From a virus, in the IMG/VR virus record IMGVR_UViG_3300010376_000033, positions 8,587 through 72,586 of that record: a stretch of 64,000 nucleotides of DNA; one strand, written 5' to 3'. Below are positions 1 through 62,423 of the stretch, in pieces. The translations under genes and the position numbers were made by a program. The notes under the pieces were generated by a model. The model made no database searches. It was not told the origin of the DNA and saw only the letters and a list, made by a program, of their open reading frames with translations. Numbering within the stretch: position 1 is the first letter of the stretch; every line of letters begins with the position of its first letter.

Positions 1-1
1 G

Positions 2-1666
2 GACCGTCCCAACTCCAAAATCACCAACTGCCTCACGGAAGTCTTCGGCATTGACTACGATCCCAGCCTGGGCCGTTATGAGGTGCATCCCACCGACGAC
101 GCCAAGGAGCGGGCCCGCAACTACCTGCGCTCCACGGGCGCCCAGGAGACGGCGCCCGATAAATTCCAAGCGGTCATCATCCACTACGAGGGCAATACCT
201 CGACCTGGAAGAAGAACCTGAAGCACTGGCAGGGGCAAGCGCTGGCGCAGAAGGCGCTCTTGTTGGGCCGCGTGCCCATTGTCCTCGACTGGGACGGCCG
301 CAGCCCGGTGCCCGACGACAAGACCATCTTTTGCCCGCGCCCGGGCAAGGAGGATGTCTGGGGCGGCTGGGGTTCCGGCGATGCCGGCGTCATCACGGCC
401 ATGATTGCGATGGCCGAAGCCTATGTGGGCATCGATTCGGGCCCGGGCAAGTGCGCCAGCGCCACCGACACGCCGACCCTGATCGTCTGGCGCGAGCATC
501 ACCCCGTGCAATTTCACGATCCCGCTCCCAATACCACCCACTTACTGCCGCATAACTGGCGGACCATCCCGCCGGCCGAGCGCTTGCCGATTGCCGACTT
601 CTTCCTCAAGCACTATCAGTATGTGGAATACGGCGGCGACTTCGGCCTGACCGACACGGCCACGGATTGGCTGGCCAGGGTCCTGGGCGGCCAAATGCCG
701 ATCTTGCGTCCGGGCAAACGGATTTTCGTCATCCCCAATGGCATCGGCGATGCTCTCTGGGTCCTGCACAAAATCAAAGGCGTGGCCCAGGACGGGCCCA
801 TTGATCTCATCCTGTCCGGCAATCCCGCCCGCGAATTGGACCATCGCGCCGAGCCCTTTCTCAAGCGCTTCCCGTTCATCCATTCGGCTACCCTTCTCGA
901 TGTGCCCGTGTTGCGCTCAGAGCGGGACTATGAGCGCAATGACGAAAAGGGCCGCTACCGCTACTGGCCCGACGGCGAGCGCTCGGGCTACCATTTCCTG
1001 ATTCCCAACGCCGTCCTGGAAAAAGGCGAGCGCCTGGAGACGTGGCTGCCGGAGGTTCCAGTTGACTGGTCCGTTGTCAATGATTTCTCCTGGGACAACA
1101 CGGACAAGGGCGATCTCCTGGGTCGTTCTCTGGGCGACTTCGTTGCTTTTTACTTGGGTCCCGAGGAGGGCAACGTGGACGAGGGGCACGGGCGCGGCTT
1201 TATCTGGGAGCCCAAGCAATGGCTCGAATTGGGCCAGCTGTTCCAGGAGCGCGGCCTGCGCATCGCTTTGGTCGGTGCGGCCTATGACCGTTCGTACTAC
1301 GACCGCTATGTCAAGGAGGCGGTCAAGAACGCCGGCTGGCGCTGGTTTGATTTCCTGGGCCAACTGGAGATCGGCGAGACCATGGCGCTTCTTAAGCGGG
1401 CGCGTCTCTTTGTTAGTTACCAGTGCGGCCTGGGCATTTTTGCCCATTACCTGGGACTCAAGGTGTGCATGTGGTGGCGGCCCGACGGCGACAGCATTCA
1501 CGGCAAACGATTGATTTCCTTTGACGAAAGAATGGCCACGGCCTGGACTAACCCCGCCTACGCCGACCGCTACCTGGGCCTGATCTACAAACGCTGTTCG
1601 CCTAGCAGCATCGTCGCGCAAATGCACGAGCGCGGCTGGCTTGACAAGATAGCACCATCGTCCTAA
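2..1666 (+). CDS. Tandem two-domain GT9-like (heptosyltransferase-like, GT-B) glycosyltransferase, 5'-truncated by the window edge
   Basis: Frame is open from base 2 (DRPNSKITNCLTEVFGIDYD...). GT9 C-terminal-type motifs AMAEAYVGIDSGPGKCASATDTPTLIVW and ALLKRARLFVSYQCGLGIFAHYLG; N-terminal-type PNGIGDALW at the start of the second domain. Confidence 0.7.
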   Translation, partial: DRPNSKITNCLTEVFGIDYDPSLGRYEVHPTDDAKERARNYLRSTGAQETAPDKFQAVIIHYEGNTSTWKKNLKHWQGQALAQKALLLGRVPIVLDWDGRSPVPDDKTIFCPRPGKEDVWGGWGSGDAGVITAMIAMAEAYVGIDSGPGKCASATDTPTLIVWREHHPVQFHDPAPNTTHLLPHNWRTIPPAERLPIADFFLKHYQYVEYGGDFGLTDTATDWLARVLGGQMPILRPGKRIFVIPNGIGDALWVLHKIKGVAQDGPIDLILSGNPARELDHRAEPFLKRFPFIHSATLLDVPVLRSERDYERNDEKGRYRYWPDGERSGYHFLIPNAVLEKGERLETWLPEVPVDWSVVNDFSWDNTDKGDLLGRSLGDFVAFYLGPEEGNVDEGHGRGFIWEPKQWLELGQLFQERGLRIALVGAAYDRSYYDRYVKEAVKNAGWRWFDFLGQLEIGETMALLKRARLFVSYQCGLGIFAHYLGLKVCMWWRPDGDSIHGKRLISFDERMATAWTNPAYADRYLGLIYKRCSPSSIVAQMHERGWLDKIAPSS

Positions 1667-1673
1667 AATAAAC

Positions 1674-1901
1674 ATGGCGGAAGCACACAATGTTTTCGAG
1701 CTGGTGGCCCGTTGTTTTAATGAGGGCTGCGATGCGCGCTGGCGCGGCGAGGCCATCGAGCAATGCCCCTATGAGGCCGGCGTCGGTCCCGAAGCCGCCT
1801 ACTGGAAATTGGGCTGGCGCGACATGCACTGGCACTGGGGCAGCCGCGTGCGCGGCCGCTGGCGGCACCAACCCCTAACACCCTTGGGATATTTTCGATG
1901 A
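1674..1901 (+). CDS. Small Rmf/CrpP-like protein
   Basis: EGCDARWRGEAIEQCPYEAGVGPEAAYWKLGW fits the G..A...G.....CPY...W..GW pattern of ribosome modulation factor. Confidence 0.55.
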   Translation: MAEAHNVFELVARCFNEGCDARWRGEAIEQCPYEAGVGPEAAYWKLGWRDMHWHWGSRVRGRWRHQPLTPLGYFR

Positions 1902-2977
1902 TGTACACGGCTCAGGCTGCGGACTGCATTGCCTTTCTGGATAGCTTGGAAGAAAATTCCGTCGATCTCATCCTGGGTAGTCCTCCCTATGCCGATGCCC
2001 GCACCTACGGGATCGACGCCGTGTACGGTTGCCAGGACTGGGTGGACTGGATGCTCCAGGTAACCAAGGCGGCCACGCGCGTCAGCAAGGGGCTGGTCCT
2101 GTGGGCTGTGGCCGGTGTGCAGCGTGAGCTGAATTATTGGCCCTGCTGCGAGGGGCTAGCCTGGGAGTGGTGGAAGCAGGGCGGCCAGCAGTGGCGGCCG
2201 TGTATCTGGTGGAAGGTCGATGAGGACGAGGGCGGCACGGGCATTCCCGGCTCGGGCGGCAAGCAATGGCTCCGCAACGACTGGGAGTACATCCTGGCCT
2301 TTAAGAAAGAGGGCTGGCTGCCGTGGGCGGACAATACGGTCATGGGTCACGCGCCCGTCTATGCCCAGGTCGGCGGCGAGATGAGCAACCGCACCGTGGA
2401 TGGACAGCGGAGTAACGCCCGCGTCGGCCATGGCGCCAAATCGCGCCGGGACAGATGGGCGGGCGAGCCGCCGGACACGGCCAGCCGGGGCGAACAGAGC
2501 TTGCTCGACGGCAGTGTGGAAGACATGCTGGATGACCCGTGGAATACGGCTAGCCGTGGCGGTCAGGGGATTGGCGGCCGCAAGCAAGACGGCCGGAAGA
2601 AGCAAGGCCCGATGCGCGTCGGCGCGAAAGATGCAAGTGGCAAGACGAAGAGGAAGCGCGGGGCGCCCATGCCCAAGCTGGCCAATCCGGGCAACTGTAT
2701 TATTGTCAAAGCGCGAGTAGGCGGCGGTCATATCGGCGCCCGCGTCGCCCATGAGAACGAAGCGCCCTATCCGGAGAAGCTGTGCGAATTTTTCATCCGT
2801 TCCTTTTGCCCGCCCGACGGCCTGGTCCTCGATCCCTTCTGCGGCTCGGGCACGACCCTGGCTGTTGCCGTTCGTCACGGCCGGCGGGCGCTGGGCTGCG
2901 ACTTGCGCGAGAGCCAGATCGCCTTGGCCTTAAAGCGCTGTAGCGAAGAAACCCGGCCGCTGTTCGGAGAACTATAA
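1898..2977 (+). CDS. DNA methyltransferase, beta class (N4-cytosine/N6-adenine), with long basic low-complexity insert
   Basis: Catalytic DLILGSPPY near the N-terminus; SAM-binding VLDPFCGSGTT near the C-terminus; HEAPYPEKL-like motif. Confidence 0.9.
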   Translation: MMYTAQAADCIAFLDSLEENSVDLILGSPPYADARTYGIDAVYGCQDWVDWMLQVTKAATRVSKGLVLWAVAGVQRELNYWPCCEGLAWEWWKQGGQQWRPCIWWKVDEDEGGTGIPGSGGKQWLRNDWEYILAFKKEGWLPWADNTVMGHAPVYAQVGGEMSNRTVDGQRSNARVGHGAKSRRDRWAGEPPDTASRGEQSLLDGSVEDMLDDPWNTASRGGQGIGGRKQDGRKKQGPMRVGAKDASGKTKRKRGAPMPKLANPGNCIIVKARVGGGHIGARVAHENEAPYPEKLCEFFIRSFCPPDGLVLDPFCGSGTTLAVAVRHGRRALGCDLRESQIALALKRCSEETRPLFGEL

Positions 2978-3648
2978 TGGCTACGCCCTTGGTGTCCATT
3001 TCTTACTGCGCCTGCCATACCAAGATGGATGTTGGCATCTCCGGCGAAGACCATGCCCAGTGGCTTCTCAACCAAGTCACCATGCTCCAGGCGCTGGTGG
3101 ACTGGCCCTTGATCGTCGCTTGCACCGGCTGGCCGGGCATTCTGTCCATCGAAAACACACCGACCTCGCGCGAGCGTGATGTCCTGTGGCAAGTCTTCAA
3201 GCGGACCCGGGCCATCGTCGGCATTCCCGAAAACCCCGGCCATCAATCGGGCGCTGCCCAGTGTATTCGCATTGCCCTGGAGACGGCCTGCAATTTGGAT
3301 TTTCCTTATCTCATCCACACCGCCGAGGACGTGGTGCCCCGCCGCGGTATCCTCCGGGAAATGTTCCTCGCCCTGGAAGAGGAGCATGATTATGCCGGCG
3401 AGTGGTGGTACAGCGAGCCGCCCGGACTCAACACGCAATTTTTCGGCTGCCGGCCCAGCGCCCTCATCAACTACTGGGACTCGGCGACCCTCTACAACCA
3501 TGTTCATATCGAGGGCTATATGCGGCACTTGATCCAGGACCATCACGCCGCCTGCTACCTGTTCAAGCACGAAACCATGTACTATACGACGCACCATCAT
3601 CATGCCTGGCGCGCCGCCGTCAAGAGCGAGCATGGTTTTCAATTTTAA
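2977..3648 (+). CDS. Hypothetical protein, possibly glycosyltransferase-like
   Basis: Overlapping TAATG stop/start with the upstream gene; YLIHTAEDVV resembles a DxD-type region; sits in a sugar cluster. Confidence 0.45.
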   Translation: MATPLVSISYCACHTKMDVGISGEDHAQWLLNQVTMLQALVDWPLIVACTGWPGILSIENTPTSRERDVLWQVFKRTRAIVGIPENPGHQSGAAQCIRIALETACNLDFPYLIHTAEDVVPRRGILREMFLALEEEHDYAGEWWYSEPPGLNTQFFGCRPSALINYWDSATLYNHVHIEGYMRHLIQDHHAACYLFKHETMYYTTHHHHAWRAAVKSEHGFQF

Positions 3649-3662
3649 GGAGCCGGCCAACA

Positions 3663-4319
3663 ATGCTCGAAGCCTTGTTACAACAGTGGTTGGCGGACGC
3701 CGAGAGACACCAGGATGCACGCCGCCACCTGACGCCTTATCCCGGGGCGACCGGGCCGGGCTACCTGGGCTACATGGCGACCCTGGCCTCCTTTGCCTGG
3801 CTGGCGCCCGGCCATATCGTCGAATGCGGCAGCTGTCTGGGGATCGGCACCTTGGCCTTGTGGTGGGGGCGGCATCTGAGTGGGGACACGATACGGCGCC
3901 TGTTGACCATCGACCAGGACGACGAGGCCCTGCGGGCGCTCCACGACCGCGCCGGACGCTTGAACCTTAACGACATTACCTACTGCCACGGCGATACCGC
4001 CGATCCGGCGCTGTTGCGCAACTTCGCCCATGATTTTGGCCCGATCGGTTTTCTCTACGCCGATGCCGACCACCGCTATGAGGGCTGTATCGCCGAGCTG
4101 GAGAATGCCGTGCCCCACATGGTGCCACACGGTAAAATCCTGGTCCATGATCTGGCGCCGCGCTGGGACAAGGAATTGTTCGACCGGCATCACAACGGCG
4201 TTACCGAAGCCGTGGAGAAATTTTTGCATCAAGAGCCGCTCTGGGCCGCCTTCTACCTGGGCGGCGGCTGGGCGCTTCTGTATCAACGAGAGTCAGACCT
4301 GGCATGCCACCACCTTTGA
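3663..4319 (+). CDS. Class I SAM-dependent methyltransferase (Methyltransf_24-like)
   Basis: IVECGSCLGIGT, FLYADADHRYEG, GKILVHD motifs; AAGGAG RBS upstream of ATG 3663. Confidence 0.8.
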   Translation: MLEALLQQWLADAERHQDARRHLTPYPGATGPGYLGYMATLASFAWLAPGHIVECGSCLGIGTLALWWGRHLSGDTIRRLLTIDQDDEALRALHDRAGRLNLNDITYCHGDTADPALLRNFAHDFGPIGFLYADADHRYEGCIAELENAVPHMVPHGKILVHDLAPRWDKELFDRHHNGVTEAVEKFLHQEPLWAAFYLGGGWALLYQRESDLACHHL

Positions 4320-5170
4320 CGGAATTGCAAATCGAGCTGGCCGGCGTCTGCAATATCGCGTGCGCGTACTGTACCTGGCGCCAGCGCGAGGTCGGCAAGC
4401 AGCTCATGGACACGGAGTTGGCCGTTACGCTCTTAGAGCAAGCGGCTCAGTTCGATCCCGTGCCCTTGGTAACTCTCCACGGCGTCGGCGAGGCCACGCT
4501 CCATCCCCATTTCCGGGCCCTGTTGACACTGGGGCATGGCCTGGGACTGCCGTTGCGGCTCTCGACCAATTGCCTGACGCTGGATACAGCCCGGATTGCC
4601 TGGCTGCGCCAGCTGACCAATTTAAATTTCATTCTGGCCTTGCACCAGGGCGTGCCCATCAAAACCAAGAAGAAGGCCCAGGATCAGGCTCTCGATTTTC
4701 TGGCCTCCGGGCCGCGTTGCCGGCAGGTGGAGGTCCTGCTGGTTTGCGATGACCAGGGCGCCAGTCAGGCCGGCCGCCTAGCGGGCACCTTCCTGCCGGT
4801 CCTCGAACGCGTGCCGCACAGCCGCTTGCATTTCAAGCAGCCGCAGACCTGGCCCAAGTCGCCGCCCGTGCGCGGCCATATTCCGACGGGAGCCTGGGAG
4901 CAGCATCCGCAAGTGCTTATCGACCGCGTGGCCACGCCGCGCTCGTTGGCCAGGGGTTGCTCCATGCCCGATTATTTGTTATCGGTCCAGGCCGATGGCA
5001 CGACGACCTTGTGCTGTGTCGGCGAAGAGGACTGGGGCCTGGCCAACGCCAAGCGGCAAACGTTGGCCGACATCTGGCAGTCGGCTGCCGCTCATTCCTG
5101 TCGCGACGCCTGGCGTGCGAGTAGTGACCGCCTGCCGTGTGGCCACTGTAAAAACCGAGGAGATTGCTAA
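4304..5170 (+). CDS. Radical SAM protein with C-terminal SPASM/twitch-like Cys cluster
   Basis: CNIACAYC (CxxxCxxC), LHGVGEATLHP, C-terminal C...CC...CGHC. Confidence 0.9.
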   Translation: MPPPLTELQIELAGVCNIACAYCTWRQREVGKQLMDTELAVTLLEQAAQFDPVPLVTLHGVGEATLHPHFRALLTLGHGLGLPLRLSTNCLTLDTARIAWLRQLTNLNFILALHQGVPIKTKKKAQDQALDFLASGPRCRQVEVLLVCDDQGASQAGRLAGTFLPVLERVPHSRLHFKQPQTWPKSPPVRGHIPTGAWEQHPQVLIDRVATPRSLARGCSMPDYLLSVQADGTTTLCCVGEEDWGLANAKRQTLADIWQSAAAHSCRDAWRASSDRLPCGHCKNRGDC

Positions 5171-5802
5171 TGGGCTTCGCCGATGTCAGCGCCTGGTTCG
5201 ACCACGACGACAATGCGCTCGTAGAGCATATCAACTGGATCACCTCGAACGCGGCCGAGAAACAGCTGGCCTTTATCCAGCCGCGCTTCGAGGCAGCCGC
5301 TCTCAAGAGCGCGGTGGAATTCGGCTCGGGCTCGGGCCGGCTGGCCTTCGCCTGGGCCAAGGCCAACCCCCAGCTCATTTACGACGGCATCGAAAAGTCG
5401 CAGAAGCTTTACGACCTCACGGTCGATCCGCACATCTCGGGACTGGAGGCGCCGTGGCTCAATTTCCACAAGGGCGATGTGCGCGACTCGGCGGTGTTGC
5501 CGACGGCGGATTGTGCCCTGGCCTTCGCCTTCATGAAGCATTTTTCCCTGGACGAGTGGAACGACATCCTGGCTCACGTCCTCATGAACGGGCGTTACGG
5601 CGCCTTCGATGTTCAGGTGGCGGGCCAGGATCATGACAACGGCACCCATTACCATCATGTTTATGTCAGCGAGACGCGCCTGCTCGAAGCCGTGCGCCTA
5701 GCTGGTCATGAAATCCTGGACCGCGCCACCTGGGAGGAATGCGACGTGGACGGCCTGGGCCGGATGCGCAACGCGGTTTTGTGGACCAAGAGGCGCTCAT
5801 GA
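5170..5802 (+). CDS. Class I SAM-dependent methyltransferase
   Basis: VEFGSGSGR motif I, YDGIEKS motif II, FHKGDVRD. Confidence 0.8.
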   Translation: MGFADVSAWFDHDDNALVEHINWITSNAAEKQLAFIQPRFEAAALKSAVEFGSGSGRLAFAWAKANPQLIYDGIEKSQKLYDLTVDPHISGLEAPWLNFHKGDVRDSAVLPTADCALAFAFMKHFSLDEWNDILAHVLMNGRYGAFDVQVAGQDHDNGTHYHHVYVSETRLLEAVRLAGHEILDRATWEECDVDGLGRMRNAVLWTKRRS

Positions 5803-5993
5803 ATTGCGACTTTGCGCTTCAAGTTGACGGCCAAGACATCGCCGACCCTACCGAGGATTATGTCTTGCGCGTGGACAACTGGAGCGCGCCCGTTTTGTAT
5901 TTCCAGGGACGGCGCGTCACGAAAACGTGGCAGGTAAGCTTGCGGGCTCACAGCGAGGAGGATACCCTTGGCCAATCCGCGAACACGACGTAA
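5799..5993 (+). CDS. Hypothetical protein
   Basis: ATGA overlap with the upstream stop; fills the operon gap. Confidence 0.5.
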   Translation: MNCDFALQVDGQDIADPTEDYVLRVDNWSAPVLYFQGRRVTKTWQVSLRAHSEEDTLGQSANTT

Positions 5994-6150
5994 GCGCTGT
6001 CAGGTCTGCGGCGGCGTCTTGCCGCGCCGCAACCGCCCGCGCCATCCGCTCTGTGAGCGCGTGCGCCGTCTGGAAAAAGAACAGGACGAGCTGATCCTCT
6101 ATAAGGAAGGAAACACGGTTTATGGATTTCGCCTCACTCTACGCTCGTGA
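5968..6150 (+). CDS. Small hypothetical protein, possible Zn-binding
   Basis: CQVCGG...HPLC; overlaps both neighbours. Confidence 0.4.
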   Translation: MANPRTRRKRCQVCGGVLPRRNRPRHPLCERVRRLEKEQDELILYKEGNTVYGFRLTLRS

Positions 6151-7537
6151 TCGGGACCAGCCCCAGCGCATCGCCGTGGTCGGCGATACCCTGCTCGACG
6201 ACTGGGTGGAAACCGCGCCCTTTTCGTGTCCCGACCTATGCCCAACCGGGAAAACCTTGGGCCATCATTCGTTGCCCGGCGGCGCCGCCAATGTGGCCCG
6301 CCAATTCGAGAATTGGCACAGCCGGGCGACGCTCTTGGGGCCGCTCTCGCGTCAGCTGGCGCAGGCTCTCAAGCGCTACGGCAAGAGCGTCGATCAGGAG
6401 CTAGCCTTTGAAGTCAAGGCCATGCCCGTGAAAAGGCGCTACCGCACGGCGGCGGGAAAACTCCTGTTTCGCGCCGACAGCGAGGCTCCCGACTATGACC
6501 TGGCCCCCAGCGAGCTGGAAGAAATTCGCAGCCTGACCGTGAAAGCCGTGCGCGAGTTGCCCTGGAATGCCATTCTGTTGGTGGACTACATGAAAGGGTT
6601 TGTGGATGAGCGCCTAGCGGAAAACATCATCCGCATAGCCCGGCACCGGGACATCCTGGTGATTGCCGATCCCAAACGGCCGCCGGAGGCGTTTGCAGGC
6701 GCGCTCCTGAAGACCAATGAGGACTACTTTTCCCAGCACGAGTCCAGTTTCAAGCGCTACGCCTGGCCGCGCGTCACCACCTACGGCGCCAGCCCCCCTT
6801 GGCTCCAGACCCTTGAGACCCAAGAGCCCTTTCGTGTCTTTCGCTGTGTGGATGAGGCCCTGGCTGGCGTGCCCTGTCGCAACCATGTCGGTGCCGGCGA
6901 CTGCTTCTTGGCCCATCTGTGTCTGGGCCTGCTACATGGCCTGGGCGGCCGGGACGCCGCCCGCTTCGCGCACCACGCCGGCCGCGTTTATGTGCAACAC
7001 CTGGACGCCAGGCCGCCCTCTCACTATGAGATCGTCAAGGACTATGACCCCATAGGGGGCAAGTGGCTCGAACGCCAGGCGCTGCCGTCATTGGCCGACA
7101 GCCTGCGCGGCAGGCAGGTGATTTTTACCAACGGCGTTTTCCGCCTGCCGCACGCCGGCCATGCCTGGTTTTTGGAGCAGGCGCGCAAGCGCGGCGATGT
7201 TCTCGTGGTGGGCATCAATGACGACAGCTCGGCAGCCAGGCAGCGTCCGGGCGCCACGATCTTGCCCTTGCGCGATCGTGTGCAAATGCTGGCCTCCTTT
7301 GCTTTCGTGGACTGGATCGTGCCTTTTGGTGAGGACACGCCCGAAGCCCTCCTGAAGGTGCTGGCAGCGCCCTTAGACGAACCCGTGATCCTGGCCAAAG
7401 GTGCCGAGTATGCGGGTACGATCGTGCCCGGACAGGACCTAGCCGTTGAAGTCGTGTTTATCGAAGCATCGCCGTTCCCGCAGCATGCCACCACCTTGAT
7501 CCAGGACTTCCAGCACAAATGTCCCACCTGCCCCTAG
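6122..7537 (+). CDS. hldE: Bifunctional heptose-7-phosphate kinase / heptose-1-phosphate nucleotidyltransferase (HldE/RfaE-like)
   Basis: PfkB domain (VVGDTLLD, PGGAANVA, LVDYMKG, IADPK, VGAGDCF) fused to a cytidylyltransferase-like domain (FTNGVF.LPHAGH, GDVLVVGINDDSS, VDWIVPFGEDTP, LAKGAEY). Confidence 0.92.
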   Translation: MDFASLYARDRDQPQRIAVVGDTLLDDWVETAPFSCPDLCPTGKTLGHHSLPGGAANVARQFENWHSRATLLGPLSRQLAQALKRYGKSVDQELAFEVKAMPVKRRYRTAAGKLLFRADSEAPDYDLAPSELEEIRSLTVKAVRELPWNAILLVDYMKGFVDERLAENIIRIARHRDILVIADPKRPPEAFAGALLKTNEDYFSQHESSFKRYAWPRVTTYGASPPWLQTLETQEPFRVFRCVDEALAGVPCRNHVGAGDCFLAHLCLGLLHGLGGRDAARFAHHAGRVYVQHLDARPPSHYEIVKDYDPIGGKWLERQALPSLADSLRGRQVIFTNGVFRLPHAGHAWFLEQARKRGDVLVVGINDDSSAARQRPGATILPLRDRVQMLASFAFVDWIVPFGEDTPEALLKVLAAPLDEPVILAKGAEYAGTIVPGQDLAVEVVFIEASPFPQHATTLIQDFQHKCPTCP

Positions 7538-7546
7538 GAGTACGTT

Positions 7547-7741
7547 ATGCGTGAGCGAAAACCCAACCGTTATATCCAGGCGGGTCCTTATACCTGGGTG
7601 GAGATCACGCCCGAGCTGCAAGAATTCATGGCCCAGGAAGACAAAAAATCGTTCACGCGCTTCCTGGTCTTGGGACTGTGGCTGCCCGCCGCCGTGGCCG
7701 GCATCATCCTGTTAACTTGCATTTTGCTACGCTGGTCTTAA
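7547..7741 (+). CDS. Small membrane protein
   Basis: AGGAG RBS; C-terminal hydrophobic helix FLVLGLWLPAAVAGIILLTCILL. Confidence 0.6.
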   Translation: MRERKPNRYIQAGPYTWVEITPELQEFMAQEDKKSFTRFLVLGLWLPAAVAGIILLTCILLRWS

Positions 7742-7750
7742 AATAAAACC

Positions 7751-7942
7751 ATGATAAACAAGAAAGACTACCTGACCGTGCCCGAGGTAGCGGCACTACA
7801 CGGCGTCCGCCGCCAGCTGGTCAACTGGTGGATCGAGCAGGGCTATCTGCCCTGCAAGCGGGTCGGCAAAAACACCCTTCTCGTGCCCTACCAGGCGGCG
7901 CTGCACTTTGTCCGCCCCAGCCAGCGGCACGCGCTGCCGTAG
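7751..7942 (+). CDS. Excisionase-like helix-turn-helix DNA-binding protein
   Basis: YLTVPEVAALHGVRRQLVNWWIEQGYLPCKRVG. Confidence 0.8.
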   Translation: MINKKDYLTVPEVAALHGVRRQLVNWWIEQGYLPCKRVGKNTLLVPYQAALHFVRPSQRHALP

Positions 7943-7966
7943 CCAGAATTTTCGCCTTTTTTTCTC

Positions 7967-7995
7967 TTGACAGAATAGGACCATTGTCTTATTAT
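7967..7995 (+). promoter_or_regulatory. Sigma70-type promoter
   Basis: TTGACA-N17-TATTAT in an AT-rich gap, preceded by a T-tract. Confidence 0.8.
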
Positions 7996-8046
7996 AAATA
8001 GAGGGGTGAAGGCGACCAACATCTCGGCCAACAAGGAGTCTGAATC

Positions 8047-8247: not shown

Positions 8248-8300
8248 CCACCTACGCCGGGGCGGCGCCCAACGCCTCACCTACTTTTACAGGAGTGACC

Positions 8301-36369: not shown

Positions 36370-36410
36370 TCCTGTCATTTTGTCAGGCTGCTAGCGGAAA
36401 GCGGCTGGTT

Positions 36411-56984: not shown

Positions 56985-58271
56985 ATGCCAAACGCCATCA
57001 TCGCGCCGGCGCTTCAGGCTCCTTCGCAGGCGTCGGGCGTGCCGGGCAGCTCGCTGCCCACGGGGCCAGTAAGCCTTCTTTTGGAAGACCCACGTTTTGC
57101 CCGGGCACCGCGCTTGCAGTTTACGCGCGAGGATATTCCGGAATTGCGCCTAGCGGGCACTTTCTTTCTGCCGTCGGGACGCTGGCCAGCCCGGGGTTGG
57201 TTTCTGGTCAAGCGCGGCGACTTGGACTTGCTCCAGAACAAGTTTCGTACCGACCTCCAACTCGCCCTCGACGATTTTTTGGGCGGGGCCGTCACTTATA
57301 AGAATCTGTGCCTGGTGCAAGCACGCAATGTGACGGCGGGCGTCTTGGGCGATCCCAACGCGCTCTATCTGGTTGAATTGACCGATGCCCGTGGCATTCT
57401 GTGGAACCCGTGGGCGTCGTTCCCGACCAACACGCAGTACAACGTCCGCGCCCCGGCTTATGCGGGCGGTTTTTATGAATTATCCGCGCCCCTGGCTTTG
57501 TGGAGCTGGGACACATTGGTCGGCGATTTGTGGGACCAGATGGGCGCCTTCCTGGGCCCTTATCCCGGCCTGCCCGTTACACCGCACGGCACGCCGGAGA
57601 ATTATATTTTCCCGGGCGTATCGGCGTGGTTGGCTCTCAATCAAATTCTCGAACTCTGCGGCCTGACGGTGGCCGTTGATTTGACTCAGGACAACCCCTA
57701 CACGATTGTTCCTTTGGGTGCGGCGGATGCCGATTACGACCGCATTGTGGCGCTGGCCCAGGGCCGCCTGGAGGATGATTGGGATTACATCGATCTGGGC
57801 TCAGGCCGTGTGCCCAAGCAGGTGACGGTGTATTTTCATCGCCGCAATCAATATTACGGCACCGAGGAGACGGTGCGCGGCGACCGCTTCCAGTGGTCGT
57901 CTACGCCCTTATACGCCGTTACGGTGCCGGCCCCGCCGCAATTCATGCAGGCCGCCGGCACGGCCTTTCTCTGGGATGATTTCACGGTCCAGTTTGACGT
58001 GGACAACAACCCCCTGGCCGGTGACGTCGCCGCCGCCGCTGATATTGCCCAGGATCGAGCCACGCAGTATTATAACCGGATTTACCGGGGGACGCTGGGC
58101 TATCAGCGCCGCCTGTACGCCGGACTCTTGCCCTTTACGCCGGGAGCGCAAGTGGACGGCGTGCGCTTGTTTATGGACTTTCGCCGAGGCTCTCTGGGGT
58201 GGTCCACCGAGACGGTGCGCGGTCCGGACCCGCCCTGGCCCGAAGTGCGTGTGCGGGAGATGGGTTCTTGA
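56985..58271 (+). CDS. Putative baseplate hub / tail protein
   Basis: Tail context; VELTDARG.L and ENY.FPGVSAW.AL..IL patterns. Confidence 0.5.
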   Translation: MPNAIIAPALQAPSQASGVPGSSLPTGPVSLLLEDPRFARAPRLQFTREDIPELRLAGTFFLPSGRWPARGWFLVKRGDLDLLQNKFRTDLQLALDDFLGGAVTYKNLCLVQARNVTAGVLGDPNALYLVELTDARGILWNPWASFPTNTQYNVRAPAYAGGFYELSAPLALWSWDTLVGDLWDQMGAFLGPYPGLPVTPHGTPENYIFPGVSAWLALNQILELCGLTVAVDLTQDNPYTIVPLGAADADYDRIVALAQGRLEDDWDYIDLGSGRVPKQVTVYFHRRNQYYGTEETVRGDRFQWSSTPLYAVTVPAPPQFMQAAGTAFLWDDFTVQFDVDNNPLAGDVAAAADIAQDRATQYYNRIYRGTLGYQRRLYAGLLPFTPGAQVDGVRLFMDFRRGSLGWSTETVRGPDPPWPEVRVREMGS

Positions 58272-58927
58272 TTATTTATCTGATCCGGCATGGCCAAAGG
58301 ACGCCCAACCGTTCCGAACGGCAAGAGATCGTCAAGCTCACGACGAAGGGCGTGGAACAAGCGCACGCCGTCGGCCGCTTTCTCCGGGAGCATCCCGTCG
58401 ATCTGGCCCTGGCCTCGCCCAAATGGCGGACGATCGATACGGCGATCTGCGCCACGCCCTTGCACCTGCGGCCGATCCAGGTTTGGCCGTGCCTGGTGGA
58501 ATACGATCTTTATGGCCCGATGGATTATGTGCCGGAATCGTTGACGCCGGCCTGCCAGTTTGAGCCGTTGCGCTCCTTGCCCGAGCATACACCCGGCGAG
58601 AAGAGCAAGGACTGTCCGGAGTCGTTCCCCGAGGCGTTTCGCCGTGCCCATTTCGCCTTGCAATGCCTGAAACACCTGCGCCTCAAGCGGCTGGCGGTCT
58701 TTTCCCACAAGGTCTTCAACTCGCTGCTTATCTGGTCCTGGCTGGGCGCGTATGGCCTGCGCGAGAAGGACTGCTATCCCCAAGAGGATGGCTGCATCAA
58801 CATACTGGAGACCGGCAAGCCGCCGGTTATCAACTTCACTGGCCATCTTGGCGATGGCCAGCCGCATAATGTGGACCTGGACTTGGATTTGATCGCGGCG
58901 GTGCTGTTGCAGACTTTGAGCGTCTAA
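58268..58927 (+). CDS. Histidine phosphatase (phosphoglycerate mutase superfamily)
   Basis: IYLIRHGQ, ASPKWRTIDTA, LVEYD, FSH; TTG start overlapping the upstream TGA. Confidence 0.85.
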   Translation: MIIYLIRHGQRTPNRSERQEIVKLTTKGVEQAHAVGRFLREHPVDLALASPKWRTIDTAICATPLHLRPIQVWPCLVEYDLYGPMDYVPESLTPACQFEPLRSLPEHTPGEKSKDCPESFPEAFRRAHFALQCLKHLRLKRLAVFSHKVFNSLLIWSWLGAYGLREKDCYPQEDGCINILETGKPPVINFTGHLGDGQPHNVDLDLDLIAAVLLQTLSV

Positions 58928-59256
58928 TGGATTCGACCAATCACGAGCCGCCGTTTTTCGGCCCCGAGCATGCCGTCTATCCGGCCCTTGACCATATCGT
59001 CCGCGTCGTCGGCCTGGCCGTGGACGCCAGCGGCCGTCCCCTGGGCACGAACGTCTACAACGGCTTTATTCAGCAGTGGAACCCCACGCTCCGCCTGCGT
59101 GACCGCGAGGCGGTCTACGTCTGGGAACCGAATGGCAATCTGCTCTTGCCGGGTTATTACGACGCCCGCCTGGTCGGCCCTTTTAACCAATTGCCCTTGC
59201 TCGTGACCTGGTGTTGCGGCCGACCGGCTTCTTCTTCCTCGTCCTCGTCGTCCTGA
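58927..59256 (+). CDS. Short paralog of the N-terminal domain of the mucin-like protein, ending in poly-Ser
   Basis: RLRDREAVYVWEPN / RLRDRAAVYVWEPN, ARLVG and CC shared; C-terminal SSSSSSSS. Confidence 0.75.
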   Translation: MDSTNHEPPFFGPEHAVYPALDHIVRVVGLAVDASGRPLGTNVYNGFIQQWNPTLRLRDREAVYVWEPNGNLLLPGYYDARLVGPFNQLPLLVTWCCGRPASSSSSSSS

Positions 59257-61106
59257 TGAACTCAACCAACGACCAAGAGCCATTTCTGGGGCCGCGCCAT
59301 GCGATCTGGCCGCAGATCATGGAGGTGGTGCGGGTCACGCCCCAGATCGATCTGCCCTTTGTTTATGTCGCCTATCTCCAGCAGCAAGACGCACCCAACC
59401 AGCGCTTGCGCGACCGGGCGGCGGTCTATGTCTGGGAGCCCAACAATATCACCATTCCGCCGGCCTTTTATAAGGCCAGGCTGGTGGGCAGTTATGACGG
59501 CCTCTTTGGCCGCCTGCCTCTTTACGCCTTGTCGCTCTTGTGCTGCGCTCCGGCGGGCTCGCGTAGCGCCGTGCCCTCTCCTTCTAGCTCCTTGTCGTCG
59601 CCGTCCTTCTTGTTGCCCAGCAGCCTGTCGCCGTCGGTGTCGTCGCCGAGCTTGCCGTCGTTCCGCGTGCCGTCCGTGTCCGTGTCGCCGTCGTCTTTGA
59701 GCGTGTCGCCCTCGGCCGTGCGTTTGCCGTTCTTGCCCTCCGTGTCCGTGTCGCCGTCCTCGGTTTCCTCCTCGCTGTCGGCACCGTCGTTTCCCTTGCC
59801 CAGCGCCCCGGTGTCCGTGTCGCCGTCGCCCTCTTCGGTATCGCCCTTTCCCTTACCGTCCTTTTTGTTCCCGTCGCCATCGCCGTCTTCGCTTTCGCCC
59901 TTTCCCTTGCCCTTGTTTTTGTTGCCGTCCGTATCCGTGTCGCCGTCGTCTTTGAGCGTGTCGTCGTCTGTATCGTCCGCCGTTTCCGTATCGTTATCGC
60001 CGTCGTCGGTCCGTATTTCCTCACCGTCCGTGTCCCTGTCATCGCCCGTGCTGCCCTCCTTGGTGTCGCCCTCGGTCTCGCCTAGCTCGCCCTCCTTGTC
60101 GTCGCTGTCGTTGGCACCCGTGTCGTTGCCGTCGTTCGTGTCGCCGTCTCCTCTCTCCGTGTCGCCGTCCTTGTCGTCCGCCGTTTCCCTGTCCTTATCT
60201 CCTTCGTCCGTTAGTATTTCCTCACCTAGCGCCGTCAGTCCTTCTTCGTTAAGTGTGTCGGCGGTTAGCCCCTCTTCCTTGAGTGTGTCGGCGGTCAGCC
60301 CCTCTTCCTTGAGTGTGTCGGCGGTCAGTCCTTCTTCCTTGAGCGTGTCGGCGCTTAGCTCGCCCTCCCCGTCCTCGTCGTCGTCTTCGTCGTCGTTCGA
60401 CATCGCGGTGTACTGGTGCATCGACTGTTCCGAATCCGGCGGGCCAGCGCGGCAATGCTTTTTCGGCACGGTGACCGACCTGGGCAACCTGCGCGGCCGC
60501 TGCAAGCTGGTCAGCGGCCCTTATCTGGACGTGCATAGCTGCGAGCGCTTTTGCTTCCCCTCGTCGGTGTCGGCTTCGCTGTCGGCCTCTTCGCTCAGCG
60601 TGCCCTCGCTCAGCTCGGTGGCCCCCTCGCGCGCTGCCGAGTCGCCGGCGCCATCGTCGTCGTCCTCGTCGCGCGTGGGCGAGGTTTCTCAGCCCAGCCA
60701 GCCCCCGACCAGGCCGTGCCGCTGTTGCACAAGCGGCTTTGGTCCTTTGCAGGTGATGGTGACGTTCTCGGGCGTTACCCCGACGCAGCCCGTTGGCAGC
60801 CAGTGCGATCAGTTTAACAACACGTTCATCCTGACCTGGCTGACCTACGGCGGCCAGGTGCCGAGATCGTGTCTATGGGCGGTTGGCTTCGAGCCGACCA
60901 TCCAGGGCTCGATCGGCTTTTGCCTCCAGTGCATCGACTTCTGGGAGTTTTCCCTCGATTGCTTTACAACAAGCAATGTGCCCTTTGATTATCAGGGGCC
61001 GGTGCTATGGGACTGTGCCAGCGCCATGACCCTGGTGTATCAGGGCAACGCCATCAACCTGGGCTGCAAGAATTGGCCGGCCACCATCCAGATTATTCCT
61101 GTCTAA
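59256..61106 (+). CDS. Ser/Pro-rich mucin-like protein with Cys-rich C-terminal domains, putative fibre or appendage
   Basis: About 280 aa of S/P/V/L only (about 59560-60398) between a conserved N-domain and two Cys-rich domains. Confidence 0.75.
   Translation: MNSTNDQEPFLGPRHAIWPQIMEVVRVTPQIDLPFVYVAYLQQQDAPNQRLRDRAAVYVWEPNNITIPPAFYKARLVGSYDGLFGRLPLYALSLLCCAPAGSRSAVPSPSSSLSSPSFLLPSSLSPSVSSPSLPSFRVPSVSVSPSSLSVSPSAVRLPFLPSVSVSPSSVSSSLSAPSFPLPSAPVSVSPSPSSVSPFPLPSFLFPSPSPSSLSPFPLPLFLLPSVSVSPSSLSVSSSVSSAVSVSLSPSSVRISSPSVSLSSPVLPSLVSPSVSPSSPSLSSLSLAPVSLPSFVSPSPLSVSPSLSSAVSLSLSPSSVSISSPSAVSPSSLSVSAVSPSSLSVSAVSPSSLSVSAVSPSSLSVSALSSPSPSSSSSSSSFDIAVYWCIDCSESGGPARQCFFGTVTDLGNLRGRCKLVSGPYLDVHSCERFCFPSSVSASLSASSLSVPSLSSVAPSRAAESPAPSSSSSSRVGEVSQPSQPPTRPCRCCTSGFGPLQVMVTFSGVTPTQPVGSQCDQFNNTFILTWLTYGGQVPRSCLWAVGFEPTIQGSIGFCLQCIDFWEFSLDCFTTSNVPFDYQGPVLWDCASAMTLVYQGNAINLGCKNWPATIQIIPV
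60231..60350 (+). repeat. Four tandem 30-nt repeats encoding AVSPSSLSVS
   Basis: GC(C/G)GT(C/T)AG(T/C)CC(T/C)TCTTC(G/C)TT(A/G)AG(T/C)GTGTCG x4. Confidence 0.9.
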
Positions 61107-61115
61107 GGTGCCGAC

Positions 61116-61367
61116 ATGCTGGATTGCGTCTATCTGGGCAAGCGCGGCACGCTGGCCGGCAACCGGCAGTGCCACCATCCCCAGATCACGGCCGGGCCGG
61201 CGGGCGTGCCTGAGCGCTTCTGCCGGGCCTGCCCGCACCGGCAGCCCCACGGCTCGCCCAAGGTGCCGCCGCGGACCCGAGCCGTGAGCGAGCGCTGCCC
61301 GCAGCTAAAAAGGCGGGCCCGGGATGAGCAGGGCAAGATCAAGAAGCGCTCCTGTCCGGTCGGCTGA
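61116..61367 (+). CDS. Small Cys-rich protein
   Basis: CVYLG...CHHP...CRACPH. Confidence 0.55.
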   Translation: MLDCVYLGKRGTLAGNRQCHHPQITAGPAGVPERFCRACPHRQPHGSPKVPPRTRAVSERCPQLKRRARDEQGKIKKRSCPVG

Positions 61368-61376
61368 GGCGGCCAT

Positions 61377-62423
61377 GTGAAAGAGCTGGACGTGTTCCAG
61401 TGTGGCCATAGCTCGACGGCGGATGAGATCACCTTGCTCGACTGTGTTGCTTGCGCTTACAAGCCGAGATATGTTATGCCGGAAGTCAAAAAACTGATCT
61501 TCAAGAACTTCCTGTCCCCGGGAGATGTCCTGTGCATGACGGCGGCCCTGTACTCCTTGCATCGTGCTTTTCCCGGTGCCTACAAGACTGCCGTGGACAC
61601 TTCCTGCCAGGCCCTTTGGGAGCATAATCCCGACGTATCGCCTCTGGCAGAAGCGCAAGCAGAGGGCGACTGGCAGGTCTTGCCCATGCAGTACAACGTC
61701 GTCAACCAGTCGAACCAGCGCGCTATCCATGTCCTCGACGGCTATTGCCAGGATTTGGAGAACCATCTGGGCGTCCATGTGCCGCTCTTTACCAACAAGC
61801 CGCTGCTCTTTCTGTCGGCCCAGGAACGGAGCTGGCTGAACCAGGTCGCCCAGGAGACGGGGCGGCAAGTCAAGTTTTGGGTCGTCAACGCCGGCTTCAA
61901 GAATTGCTTCACGGCCAAATACTGGCCCTTTTATCAAGAAGTGGTGGACCGGCTGCAAGGCAAGGTGCAATTCGTGCAGGTGGGCAAGAAGGAGCATAAC
62001 CACCAACCCTTGCGCGGCGTTATCGACCTGCTCGACAAGACCGACGATCGCCAGTTGATTCGCTTGATCTCTCACGCCGAGGGCGTCTTGTGCGGCCTGA
62101 CCTTCACCATGCACTTAGCGGCGGCGTTCCAGAAGCCGGCGGTCATCCTGGCCGGCGGCCGCGAGCCCAAGCAATGGAACACGTATGCCAATCAGATTTT
62201 ACTGAACAATGTCGGCCAGTTGCCCTGTTGCAAGACCGAAGCGTGCTGGAAAAGCCGCACCGTCCGCCTGGGCGACGGGGCCGAGGCGGACGCTCCGGAC
62301 AAACTTTGCGCCTGCCCCGTCATGACGCCCATCCCGTCGCCGCGCTGTATGGCGCTCATCGCGCCCGACGAGGTTGTCCGGGCCATTCTGAGTTACTACG
62401 AGGGTGGCGTGTTAAATTTCTAA
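61377..62423 (+). CDS. GT9-like (ADP-heptose-type) glycosyltransferase
   Basis: SPGDVLCMTAALYSL, FVQVG, RQLIRLISHAEGVLCGLTFTMHLAAAFQKPAVIL, Cys-rich tail; start may be ATG 61476. Confidence 0.8.
   Translation: MKELDVFQCGHSSTADEITLLDCVACAYKPRYVMPEVKKLIFKNFLSPGDVLCMTAALYSLHRAFPGAYKTAVDTSCQALWEHNPDVSPLAEAQAEGDWQVLPMQYNVVNQSNQRAIHVLDGYCQDLENHLGVHVPLFTNKPLLFLSAQERSWLNQVAQETGRQVKFWVVNAGFKNCFTAKYWPFYQEVVDRLQGKVQFVQVGKKEHNHQPLRGVIDLLDKTDDRQLIRLISHAEGVLCGLTFTMHLAAAFQKPAVILAGGREPKQWNTYANQILLNNVGQLPCCKTEACWKSRTVRLGDGAEADAPDKLCACPVMTPIPSPRCMALIAPDEVVRAILSYYEGGVLNF

Follow-up and report, generated by a model that had tools for sequence, protein, structure and literature searches.

A putative virion-protein glycosylation system with HldE-like and GT9-fold enzymes in an uncultured phage

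Why would a phage carry genes that resemble those for the synthesis and transfer of ADP-heptose, and on what would their products act? The 64-kb stretch of DNA analysed here (the window) is part of a 75.5-kb IMG/VR virus record from an uncultured phage of about 75 kb, whose hosts are likely planctomycete bacteria; a terminase large subunit, a major head protein, helicases and a primase-polymerase identify the record as a phage. On the plus strand, an operon encodes a tandem glycosyltransferase (GT9x2), a GT-A-like protein, two class I SAM methyltransferases, a radical SAM/SPASM enzyme and a divergent HldE-like kinase/nucleotidyltransferase, and it also carries a DNA methylase followed by a ParB-like gene (Table 1). 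The initial annotation had located the HldE-like gene, the two-domain GT9 gene, the two methyltransferases and the radical SAM gene correctly, and its third GT9-like domain is the single-unit enzyme GT9s, but its list of the operon missed the DNA methyltransferase and the GT-A-like protein.

Table 1. Features of the putative glycosylation system and of the neighbouring tail genes in the 64-kb window
Feature	Position (nt)	Strand	Evidence or remark
GT9x2, tandem glycosyltransferase, 635 aa (P0123)	1..1666	+	start codon 241 nt upstream of window
N6/N4 DNA methyltransferase	1898..2977	+	Pfam N6_N4_Mtase E 1.9e-23; phrog_67
GT-A-like candidate glycosyltransferase, 223 aa	2977..3648	+	Atlas feature and structure matches
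Class I SAM methyltransferase, Methyltransf_24, CmcI-like, 218 aa	3663..4319	+	Pfam E 2.6e-10
Radical SAM protein with SPASM/twitch-type C-terminal Cys cluster, 288 aa	4304..5170	+	Pfam
Class I SAM methyltransferase, Methyltransf_12/25, 212 aa	5164..5802	+	Pfam
HldE-like bifunctional sugar-phosphate kinase/nucleotidyltransferase, 471 aa	6122..7537	+	NF008454 E 3e-40
Tail baseplate-hub (gpD/VgrG-like) protein	56985..58271	+	Atlas structure TM 0.56-0.60
Anchor-domain protein, 109 aa, C-terminus CC-GRPA-SSSSSSSS	58927..59256	+	
Ser-rich tail-tip protein, 26% Ser	59256..61106	+	translation
GT9s, single-unit GT9 enzyme	61116..62423 (catalytic part 61377-62423)	+	Pfam GT9 E 1e-9

Transferases, sugar supply and tailoring enzymes

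GT9x2 matches Pfam GT9 in two stretches (E 8.7e-12) and is composed of unit 1 (residues 1-311 approximately) and unit 2 (approximately 319-632). In its AF2 model (pLDDT 93), unit 1 has VIA Z values of 22.7 (3tov), 20.8 (WaaF), 18.8 (WaaC) and 17.3 (TibC), with the next fold at about 12; in the model of GT9s (pLDDT 96) the values are 24.1 (3tov), 21.5 (WaaF), 20.6 (TibC) and 19.9 (WaaC), with the next fold at 11. By these models, GT9s and unit 1 are GT9 folds, roughly 8-13 Z above the next fold class, a margin of 6-13 if the GT9-like subunits of plant NDH are included. Unit 2 has a GT-B fold (Z 11-12) and contains the best Pfam GT9 stretch. The top 20 Swiss-Prot fold matches of GT9s are without exception heptosyltransferases, Aah, TibC and BimC among them. 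The G-D at the end of beta1 is kept in all three units (D17 in alignment A3, D14 and D331 in A2); the donor-site Asp of the WaaC/WaaF motif D-T/S-G is present in unit 1 only, and absent from GT9s and unit 2. The sequence profile of GT9s reaches WaaF (E 0.001) and WaaC, not TibC; GT9s lacks the TibC beta-barrel and has no BAHT or TibC sequence match. In NCBIfam equivalog scoring, GT9s reaches 26 bits against a cut-off of 185, and the GT9 units at most 26 bits against 135-185; on such scores GT9s is classed as GT9-fold, not as an orthologue of the LPS enzymes.

The N-terminal Cys-rich extension of GT9s (61116-61364) is joined to the catalytic part via an in-frame TGA (61365-61367). This TGA is conserved, with a hairpin downstream, and may encode selenocysteine.

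The HldE-like protein has PfkB and CTP_transf_like domains, and NF008454 matches both rfaE domains, at 138 bits against an equivalog cut-off of 521; judged by this score it is HldE-like, not an orthologue of the LPS-pathway enzyme. The profile of its clade matches HldC (5x9q, E 3.5e-39) and HldA (4e84, E 2e-24), the next families being at 1e-21 and 1e-9, and each domain is nearer to these solved heptose enzymes than to other families, with a margin of over 15 orders of magnitude. Three clade-invariant basic residues (K104, R106, R117) align with K/R/R of HldA. The phage clade comprises about 60 relatives with 33-50% identity; cellular HldE is about 30% identical. The suggestion that the phage has its own ADP-heptose supply holds in part, as the HldE steps are encoded, but searches of this phage and of two complete relatives turned up neither GmhA nor GmhB. 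Genes like those for GmhA and GmhB are present in the likely host lineage.

The case for heptose as the donor is one of likeness. As neither the HldE-like protein nor the GT9 units come near the equivalog cut-offs, a sugar other than heptose could be the donor, in an otherwise identical system with the same poly-Ser targets and with GT9 units of changed donor specificity. The missing donor-site Asp in GT9s and unit 2, the low identity of the phage clade to cellular HldE, the lack of phage GmhA or GmhB, and an NTP_transferase gene and an epimerase/dehydratase gene near the HldE-like gene of a relative (L005) all favour a different sugar; this is nevertheless unlikely in view of the margin by which the HldA and HldC matches exceed other families, the shared K/R/R residues, the heptosyltransferases that make up all top reviewed fold matches, and the Gmh-like genes of the likely host lineage.

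The remaining operon genes, apart from that of the DNA methyltransferase, encode candidate extension and tailoring enzymes. The GT-A-like protein has no Pfam match but resembles a viral "putative glycosyltransferase" cluster (Atlas feature 0.97, structure TM 0.74), with GT2 and RgpF clusters as lower-ranked Atlas matches, and two of five related phages (G002 and G003) have homologues. The ATG of the Methyltransf_24 gene at 3663 is preceded by AAGGAG, and its product has a weak CmcI/rhamnosyl-O-MT match (RMNT_CmcI E 0.005). In planctomycete proteins (P0198; L108) a Methyltransf_24 domain sits fused between two GT9 units, and such fusions in cellular cassette proteins tie the methyltransferases to the transferases. 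Homologues of the Methyltransf_12 protein (32-38% identity) are found in three relatives (G001, G002 and G003) and also beside an HldE-like gene in L004. The radical SAM protein (Pfam SPASM E 3e-9, Radical_SAM E 2.5e-5) has a CX3CX2C motif at residues 16-23 (CNIACAYC) and is 43% identical to the product of the radical SAM gene in the cellular cassette L108. The DNA methyltransferase has no homologue in the five related phages; it is an insertion into the operon, outside the sugar cassette.

Linkage to virion genes and poly-Ser proteins

The baseplate-hub protein matches Phage_GPD/baseplate hub clusters (Atlas structure) and is 47-51% identical in all five relatives; because its gene precedes the Ser-tract genes, these are placed at the tail tip, and by gene position the Ser-rich protein is taken to be a virion component. 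GT9s lies directly 3' of the Ser-tract genes and adjoins such tail-tip genes in relatives too; in G003 the genes of the Ser-rich protein, the Ser-tract protein, GT9s and GT9x2 are contiguous in this order. The Ser-rich protein, whose ORF is open from a GTG at 59211, has a conserved N-terminal anchor of about 100 aa ending in CC, an S/P/V/L linker of about 280 aa and a Cys-rich, variable C-terminal domain; the anchor alone is conserved among relatives, and the homologues in G003 and G005 have the same layout. The 109-aa anchor-domain protein is a paralogue of this N-terminus, with homologues in all five relatives, and in G000, G001, G002, G003 and G005 the anchor-domain protein has CC followed by a Ser tract.

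Common to this phage and its five relatives are only the virion module, GT9x2, GT9s, the HldE-like gene and one methyltransferase, apart from three further non-structural genes (an ATPase, an HNH endonuclease and a 187-aa ORF) shared with G003 alone. GT9x2 is 54-60% identical in four relatives and present in G005 as a shorter, 436-aa version (42%); GT9s is 49-52% identical and was not found in G004, an incomplete genome; the HldE-like protein is 35-41% identical. The five relatives lack homologues of the helicases, of the primase and of most other replication genes. On this comparison of genomes, inheritance of the glycosylation genes follows the virion module rather than the replication genes.

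A poly-Ser ORF (S of at least 6) is present within 10 kb of the GT9s homologue in 45 of 80 viral loci, compared with 2 of 73 control loci, which are viral loci with HldE only (Fisher 2.5e-14). After de-replication, 30 of 57 GT9s loci have a poly-Ser ORF and 27 have none within 10 kb. The density of poly-Ser ORFs is 0.083 per kb within 3 kb of GT9s and 0.028 per kb at 3-10 kb, and 38 of 46 are encoded on the GT9s strand. The contrast with the controls is kept in three GC bins, the high-GC control loci being few. Partner proteins can be as long as 3,076 aa, with 90 Ser runs.

The same enzymes, some of them as fusions, are encoded in chromosomes of Gemmataceae. In one 12-Mb MAG of this family, poly-Ser RHS/DUF6531 proteins are encoded directly downstream of the GT9 cassette at 6 of 6 loci, many of which are paralogous copies rather than independent events, compared with 1 of 20 background regions. 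The cassettes are flanked by ordinary chromosomal genes and share operons with RHS proteins, not with LPS or DNA-metabolism genes. In L108 the order is a fusion of GT9s, unit 1 and FkbM, a fusion of FkbM, MT24 and unit 2, radical SAM, HldE-like and a poly-Ser RHS protein.

A candidate mechanism and other possible targets

Co-inheritance with the virion module, the adjacency of GT9s and the poly-Ser linkage in both phages and Gemmataceae strengthen the target that had been favoured from the outset, the Ser-rich virion proteins. We judge it rather likelier to be right than wrong that the phage encodes a cytoplasmic O-glycosylation of its own poly-Ser tail-tip/fibre proteins (the anchor-domain and Ser-rich proteins of Table 1), the glycan probably being methylated heptose. 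From the observed gene content, folds, conservation and genomic linkage we infer the donor, the acceptor and the following order of steps. The HldE-like enzyme would phosphorylate host-made heptose 7-phosphate and, after the action of host GmhB, adenylylate heptose 1-phosphate to ADP-heptose. GT9s, which accompanies poly-Ser genes in phages and bacteria alike, would place the first sugar on Ser hydroxyls; both GT-B units of GT9x2 and the GT-A-like protein would extend the glycan, the two SAM methyltransferases would O-methylate it, and the radical SAM/SPASM enzyme would perform one further tailoring step. Such a glycan might serve in linker stiffening or protection, or in masking.

The enzymes might instead alter a glycan of the host envelope, be it the LPS core or some other glycolipid, in the course of infection or in lysogeny, blocking superinfection or masking receptors, with the Ser-rich genes nearby by chance. 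By sequence profile, the closest enzymes to the GT9 units are WaaF and WaaC, which are LPS heptosyltransferases; phage-encoded LPS-modifying transferases are a known kind; and more than 475 viral contigs carry an HldE-like gene, most of them with no GT9s in the vicinity. We consider this somewhat less probable still than a different donor, since the linkage of GT9s to poly-Ser genes is strong and repeated in phages and chromosomes, co-inheritance with the virion module is at MCP-like conservation, and the cellular cassettes accompany RHS proteins. A captured host system, carried as a moron and directed at host poly-Ser proteins such as RHS/DUF6531, would account for the chromosomal counterpart, where the same enzymes adjoin such proteins, but is improbable, as the phages' own poly-Ser proteins are directly beside GT9s at the tail-tip position and conservation is clade-wide like that of structural genes, not patchy like that of morons. 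Glycosylation of phage DNA, as a hypermodified base made by a DNA-modification island, was among the initial proposals and recalls both the DNA methyltransferase and ParB-like genes here and the GT-B enzymes that glycosylate DNA in T-even phages, but is now very improbable, the methylase being missing from all five relatives, replication genes not being co-inherited with the transferases, cellular cassettes accompanying proteins, and no thymidylate-synthase-family hydroxymethylase being found in this phage or two complete relatives.

Comparison with known systems

No paper was found on this kind of virus decoration, the sugar-coating of poly-Ser tail tips. Mycobacteriophages, which infect Actinobacteria, reportedly encode glycosyltransferases that act in the cytoplasm and O-glycosylate structural proteins of the phages themselves (Freeman et al. 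2023, Cell Host Microbe); some of these phages are said to have methyltransferases too, and the C-termini of capsid and tail-tube proteins to be modified. That system is similar in its phage-encoded transferases, in some phages with methyltransferases, acting on structural proteins; it reportedly uses other glycosyltransferase families, and GT9, HldE and poly-Ser tracts are not reported for it. WaaC/WaaF and HldE of E. coli (PDB 2H1H, 1PSW) match best in both sequence and fold (Z 19-22) and share the G-D motif and the two-domain HldE architecture, but the phage proteins score far below the equivalog cut-offs, the phage encodes the HldE steps only, and both phage and cellular cassettes are near protein genes, with no LPS genes nearby.

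Within the same phylum, the S-layer protein of Kuenenia stuttgartiensis carries O-linked oligo-heptose chains, with methylated sugars too, although this is a cellular and not a viral protein; its enzymes were not identified, the authors favoured a GDP-heptose route, and neither a consensus site nor a poly-Ser tract is described for it (bioRxiv 10.1101/2020.12.03.409086). Another close parallel is with the bacterial autotransporter heptosyltransferases (BAHT: TibC, Aah, BimC; PDB 4RAP/4RB4). TibC and Aah heptosylate autotransporter serines in the cytoplasm, as soluble enzymes using HldE-made ADP-heptose (PMC4358343). Like the phage enzymes they have a GT9-type GT-B fold (GT9s Z 20.6, unit 1 Z 17.3) and a Cys cluster in the C-lobe, and they place many sugars on serines of one dedicated substrate protein encoded alongside. 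Unlike them, the phage enzymes lack the N-terminal beta-barrel, some copies having a Cys-rich extension instead, and the substrates on the phage side would be low-complexity poly-Ser tracts (phage tail, RHS proteins) rather than beta-helix repeats. The phage system is also virus-encoded and adds two GT-B units, a GT-A-like protein, methyltransferases and a radical SAM enzyme, extra enzymes that suggest a tailored oligosaccharide rather than single heptoses.

Gene content and conservation of the phage cassette

The source record is a linear IMG/VR virus sequence of 75.5 kb with an estimated completeness of 77%, and the window covers its positions 8587-72586. Every gene named in the initial annotation was recovered on the plus strand by coordinates and domain searches, and the genes of the sugar cassette, all on that strand, overlap or nearly abut at their ends. 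A blastn comparison of positions 1-8000 with GenBank phages revealed no cultured relative, the sole match being 90 nt of the DNA methylase gene in Gordonia phages.

Features of the phage genome in window coordinates, with identity to five related IMG/VR phages
Feature	Position	Strand	Identity to relatives
GT9x2, tandem GT9 glycosyltransferase, 635 aa (P0123)	1-1666 (start 241 nt upstream of the window)	+	42-60% (54-60% in four relatives; shorter version in G005)
N6/N4 DNA methyltransferase	1898-2977	+	
223-aa protein, no Pfam match	2977-3648	+	
Methyltransf_24 enzyme	3663-4319	+	
Radical SAM/SPASM enzyme with CX3CX2C	4304-5170	+	
Methyltransf_12 enzyme	5164-5802	+	32-38%, three relatives
HldE-like protein (PfkB + cytidylyltransferase; HldE is best match)	6122-7537	+	35-41%
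ParB-like genes (two)	8295-9296; 62652-63680		
PAPS-reductase-like gene	19709-20614		
Two helicases and one primase-polymerase	in the window		
Terminase large subunit (TerL)	36306-37916		38-47%
Major head protein	43278-44483		49-67%
FAD amine-oxidase-family protein	55426-56979		55-56%, three relatives
Baseplate hub, gpD/VgrG-like, end of tail module	56985-58271		47-51%
Paralogue of Ser-rich protein N-terminal domain	58927-59256		
Ser-rich protein	59256-61106		
GT9s, third GT9 gene	61377-62423	+	49-52%, four relatives; not found in incomplete G004

The phage was compared gene by gene with five related IMG/VR genomes, of which two are complete. No homologue of the helicases, the primase-polymerase, the DNA methylase or most other non-structural genes was found in the five relatives, and G003 alone has three of the non-structural genes (an ATPase, an HNH endonuclease and a 187-aa ORF). 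The glycosyltransferase genes are kept in relatives that lack the replication genes, which is the behaviour of virion-module genes. In G003 the Ser-rich protein, a Ser-tract protein, GT9s and GT9x2 are encoded in contiguous order, onward to the HldE-like gene; in the window the only breaks in this order are a few inserted genes and the ends of the linear record, which are arbitrary, and in a close relative GT9s lies approximately 6 kb upstream of GT9x2. More widely, relatives of GT9x2 at 50-66% identity number more than 100, and those of GT9s about 1,500.

The N6/N4 DNA methyltransferase gene interrupts the sugar operon midway, with overlaps of the ATGA type, and is missing from the five relatives; one relative has a similar methylase directly after its GT9s gene instead. 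The amine-oxidase-family protein (Pfam Amino_oxidase, E 3e-27) is encoded within the tail module, and in a close relative its gene adjoins an ADP-ribosyltransferase-toxin-like gene. The PAPS-reductase-like gene, located among the replication genes, has no counterpart in the relatives, nor was either of the ParB-like genes found there.

Probable sugar donor, putative tailoring enzymes and glycosyltransferase fold

The HldE-like protein contains the domains PF00294 and PF01467 and matches TIGR02198 (E 8.8e-20) and TIGR02199 (E 1.2e-26), with a score of 138.2 bits against NF008454, below the equivalog cut-off of 521. The solved structures nearest to the profile of its phage clade are HldC (5x9q, E 3.5e-39) and HldA (4e84, E 2.1e-24), the next families scoring 1e-21 for nucleotidyltransferase and 1e-9 for kinase. 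A scan of viral contigs with the single protein as query gave no match, whereas an alignment-based scan did. The protein has approximately 60 relatives at 33-50% identity, many on contigs of 71-78 kb, and identity then falls sharply to about 30% for cellular HldE. Neither GmhA nor GmhB was found in the phage or in two complete relatives, and a Gemmataceae genome encodes candidates for both. Because of the family likeness of the HldE-like and GT9 proteins and the missing GmhA and GmhB, the most likely donor, judged by likeness only, would be ADP-heptose made from host intermediates. That the transferases use another donor sugar, a reading for which the score below the equivalog cut-off leaves room and against which the HldC and HldA matches argue, is unlikely.

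The putative tailoring enzymes include, besides the two methyltransferases, a radical SAM/SPASM enzyme with the motif C16-X3-C20-X2-C23 and seven C-terminal cysteines, of which the SPASM domain scores 37.4 bits (cut-off 21.5) and the Radical_SAM domain a sub-threshold 24.9 bits (cut-off 29.5). The 223-aa protein is placed by the ESM Atlas with a viral "putative glycosyltransferase" and GT2/RgpF-like folds (TM 0.74), which makes it a candidate fourth transferase.

Both GT9x2 (45.3 bits) and GT9s (38.6 bits) exceed the cut-off of 22 for the GT9 family PF01075. Fold comparison was needed since phmmer searches of the PDB returned nothing for GT9x2 and a best E of 0.3 for GT9s. AlphaFold2 models built from the family alignments reached pLDDT 93 (GT9x2) and 96 (GT9s). 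The fold of GT9s matches 3tov (Z 24.1), WaaF (21.5), TibC (20.6) and WaaC (19.9), against 11 for the next fold class, and unit 1 of GT9x2 matches solved GT9 enzymes with Z from 22.7 to 17.3, against 12 for the next. Unit 2 has a GT-B fold with generic structural matches only (Z 11-12) and holds the best Pfam GT9 stretch, in its C-lobe. A G-D pair at the end of beta1 is invariant or nearly so in all three units (D17 of the GT9s alignment, D14 and D331 of the GT9x2 alignment), and it aligned with the "MGDV" of WaaC only in a non-significant HMMER stretch. In TibC, D110 is the conserved Asp after beta1 and the catalytic base, and the D110A mutant is inactive (PMC4358343).

Among reviewed AlphaFold-DB models, the best 20 matches of GT9s are all heptosyltransferases, LPS type first, followed by Aah, TibC and BimC. 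Against the models for LPS heptosyltransferases I, II and III (TIGR02193, TIGR02195, TIGR02201) no unit attains the equivalog cut-off; the highest scores are 26.2 bits (cut-off 185.3) and 18.8 bits (cut-off 134.6). Remodelling of a host glycolipid, to which the LPS-type structural matches would point and from which the linkage to serine tracts described below leads away, is slightly less probable again than another donor sugar.

In GT9s an open reading frame beginning with the ATG at 61116 runs through a Cys-rich N-terminal extension, an in-frame TGA (61365-61367) and on into the catalytic domain. TGA occupies the same codon in two further phages, G003 (L155) and L150:1001, and in five homologues the codon is for a Cys within a C-x-x-C-G-G knuckle. 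A CTGGA-N5-TCCAG hairpin lies 15-18 nt downstream in all three TGA versions and in none of the five Cys versions. Gene callers cut GT9s short, at 307-315 aa; elsewhere TGA is the most frequent stop codon in this phage. Around the TGA no Rfam family, SECIS included, gave a match, and the predicted hairpins have no extra stability compared with shuffled sequences (z about -0.6), a comparison in which the sequence folded for G003 lay off target. SelA and SelB were found above cut-offs in a Gemmataceae genome. The in-frame TGA is a candidate selenocysteine codon, and GT9s a candidate phage selenoprotein.

Serine-tract proteins beside GT9 genes in phages and planctomycetes

The Ser-rich protein (26% Ser) begins with an N-terminal domain of about 100 aa ending in CC, which is followed by about 280 residues that are almost solely S, P, V and L, and then by a Cys-rich C-terminal domain. 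The paralogue of its N-terminal domain encoded next to it ends in CC-GRPA-S8. In relatives, the N-terminal domain, the CC motif and the Ser tract after it are kept and the C-terminal parts vary, a layout that, as far as sequence can tell, is that of an anchored, exchangeable tail-tip or fibre protein. The initial annotation had counted five structural proteins with Ser tracts, of which only those at 58927 and 59211 pass at 7 Ser in 12 residues. The 109-aa anchor protein encoded at 58927-59256 had no usable Atlas match from which a PAAR-like or other identity could be drawn, and a complex prediction of GT9s with this poly-Ser protein scored 0.02, the partner being too poorly folded for the score to weigh in either direction.

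An alignment-based scan yielded 104 viral loci with GT9s homologues, of which 80 were kept. A poly-Ser ORF, defined as having at least six consecutive Ser, was present within 10 kb in 45 of the 80 GT9s loci versus 2 of 73 viral loci with an HldE-like gene and no GT9s (Fisher 2.5e-14), and with near-duplicates removed in 30 of 57 GT9s loci. Poly-Ser ORFs are three times as dense less than 3 kb from GT9s as at 3-10 kb, and 38 of 46 are on the GT9s strand, mostly just upstream. The contrast with the controls persists in each of three GC bins (low, middle, high), the high-GC controls being few.

Extreme poly-Ser proteins are encoded beside GT9s homologues in other phages (L217:2-9229, L201:7781-9886, L221 and L225). 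The product of L217:2-9229 has 3,076 aa, 43% Ser and 90 Ser runs, with globular domains of about 200 aa alternating with Ser/Phe/Cys linkers of 70-80 aa; another protein beside a GT9s homologue, of 702 aa and 61% Ser, is a series of (S8[RK]) repeats flanked by Cys-rich ends.

Among 185,579 species genomes, the cellular relatives of GT9x2 are all from Planctomycetota, mostly Gemmataceae, except for one Hyphomicrobiales MAG contig. A phage gene upstream of both the operon and the window (L002:6379-7569) encodes a planctomycete cytochrome c domain (PSCyt1, E 2e-8), a clue to host range and a possible auxiliary gene. Together, these cellular relatives and the PSCyt1 domain point to a planctomycete host.

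One planctomycete locus (L108) encodes, in order, a fusion of GT9s, unit 1 and FkbM, a fusion of FkbM, Methyltransf_24 and unit 2, a radical SAM enzyme 43% identical to that of the phage, an HldE-like protein and an RHS protein in which Ser runs reach 16 residues. The fusion of transferases with methyltransferases in planctomycete proteins indicates that they act on one product. Six loci of a 12.2-Mb Gemmataceae MAG combine GT9s, unit 1 and a stand-alone HldC-like nucleotidyltransferase, with ordinary chromosomal genes on their flanks. DUF6531/RHS proteins with Ser runs follow in all six, compared with such a Ser-run ORF in 1 of 20 background regions of 20 kb; the six are not independent events because the copies are paralogous.

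The same MAG has at least 10 copies of the stand-alone HldC-like nucleotidyltransferase (L140-L148), at least six of them in full cassettes with the GT9s-unit 1-FkbM fusion and poly-Ser DUF6531/RHS proteins; one cassette also has a sulfotransferase, and one is beside a reverse transcriptase gene.

Such Ser-run proteins in cellular genomes would speak for host poly-Ser proteins as the targets of the phage enzymes, and the Ser-tract proteins of the phage itself speak against it; this reading is improbable.

Proposed serine-tract glycosylation and comparison with known systems

In the proposed O-glycosylation of the phage's own serine tracts, the HldE-like enzyme would raise the supply of ADP-heptose; GT9s, as its genomic linkage suggests, would begin O-glycosylation of the tracts in the cytoplasm, ahead of tail assembly; GT9x2 and the 223-aa protein, which is GT-A-like, would lengthen the glycan; and the methyltransferases and the radical SAM enzyme would tailor it. 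DNA glycosylation, a use to which a phage-encoded sugar pathway might also be put, is very improbable and is weakened by the absence of any thymidylate-synthase-type gene from this phage and two complete relatives. That absence and the co-inheritance of the cassette with virion genes are why DNA hypermodification was set aside as the leading explanation.

Glycosylated virions are, to our knowledge, known from few phages only, and we know of protein O-heptosylation solely in proteobacterial autotransporter adhesins. Literature searches yielded no account of GT9 enzymes paired with poly-Ser proteins, of a phage-encoded heptose pathway (ADP-heptose, HldE, heptosyltransferases) for virion decoration, or of such a system for planctomycete GT9 glycoproteins or phage poly-serine. 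We tentatively propose, as somewhat short of probable, that GT9s-type enzymes perform a widespread, undescribed poly-Ser-specific protein O-glycosylation of tail fibres in phages of several lineages and of planctomycete RHS-type proteins, here with a methylated, radical-SAM-tailored heptose oligosaccharide, the initiating enzyme being a selenoprotein in a subclade. If so, a dedicated, mobile enzyme set would recognise poly-serine tracts, which would account for the puzzling poly-Ser proteins of many phages and planctomycetes, and a Ser run beside GT9s would be a sequence tag from which glycoproteins could be predicted from genomes alone. Such decoration would matter for the stability of phages, their binding to receptors and their recognition by immune or defence systems. 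Because E. coli is itself a producer of ADP-heptose, the enzymes could be put to use there in the glyco-engineering of proteins with Ser tags.

No NCBIfam match to the BAHT family model was found at E<=0.01, and the GT9s family profile searched against the PDB (E<=10) found WaaF and WaaC and not TibC. The N-terminal beta-barrel of TibC (residues 1-97) is absent from GT9s, the model of which aligns to residues 91-393 of TibC only; in its place, phage GT9s copies have a Cys-rich extension or nothing. TibC has a four-Cys iron finger inserted in the C-lobe (C339, C342, C358, C370), and the C-lobe of GT9s has five invariant or nearly invariant cysteines (C251, C252, C257, C278, C291 of the GT9s alignment), which may be counterparts. 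TibC and Aah add heptose to serines of a substrate encoded next to them (PMC4358343), and a planctomycete S-layer protein carries an O-linked oligo-heptose (bioRxiv 10.1101/2020.12.03.409086); both are precedents for the mechanism proposed here.
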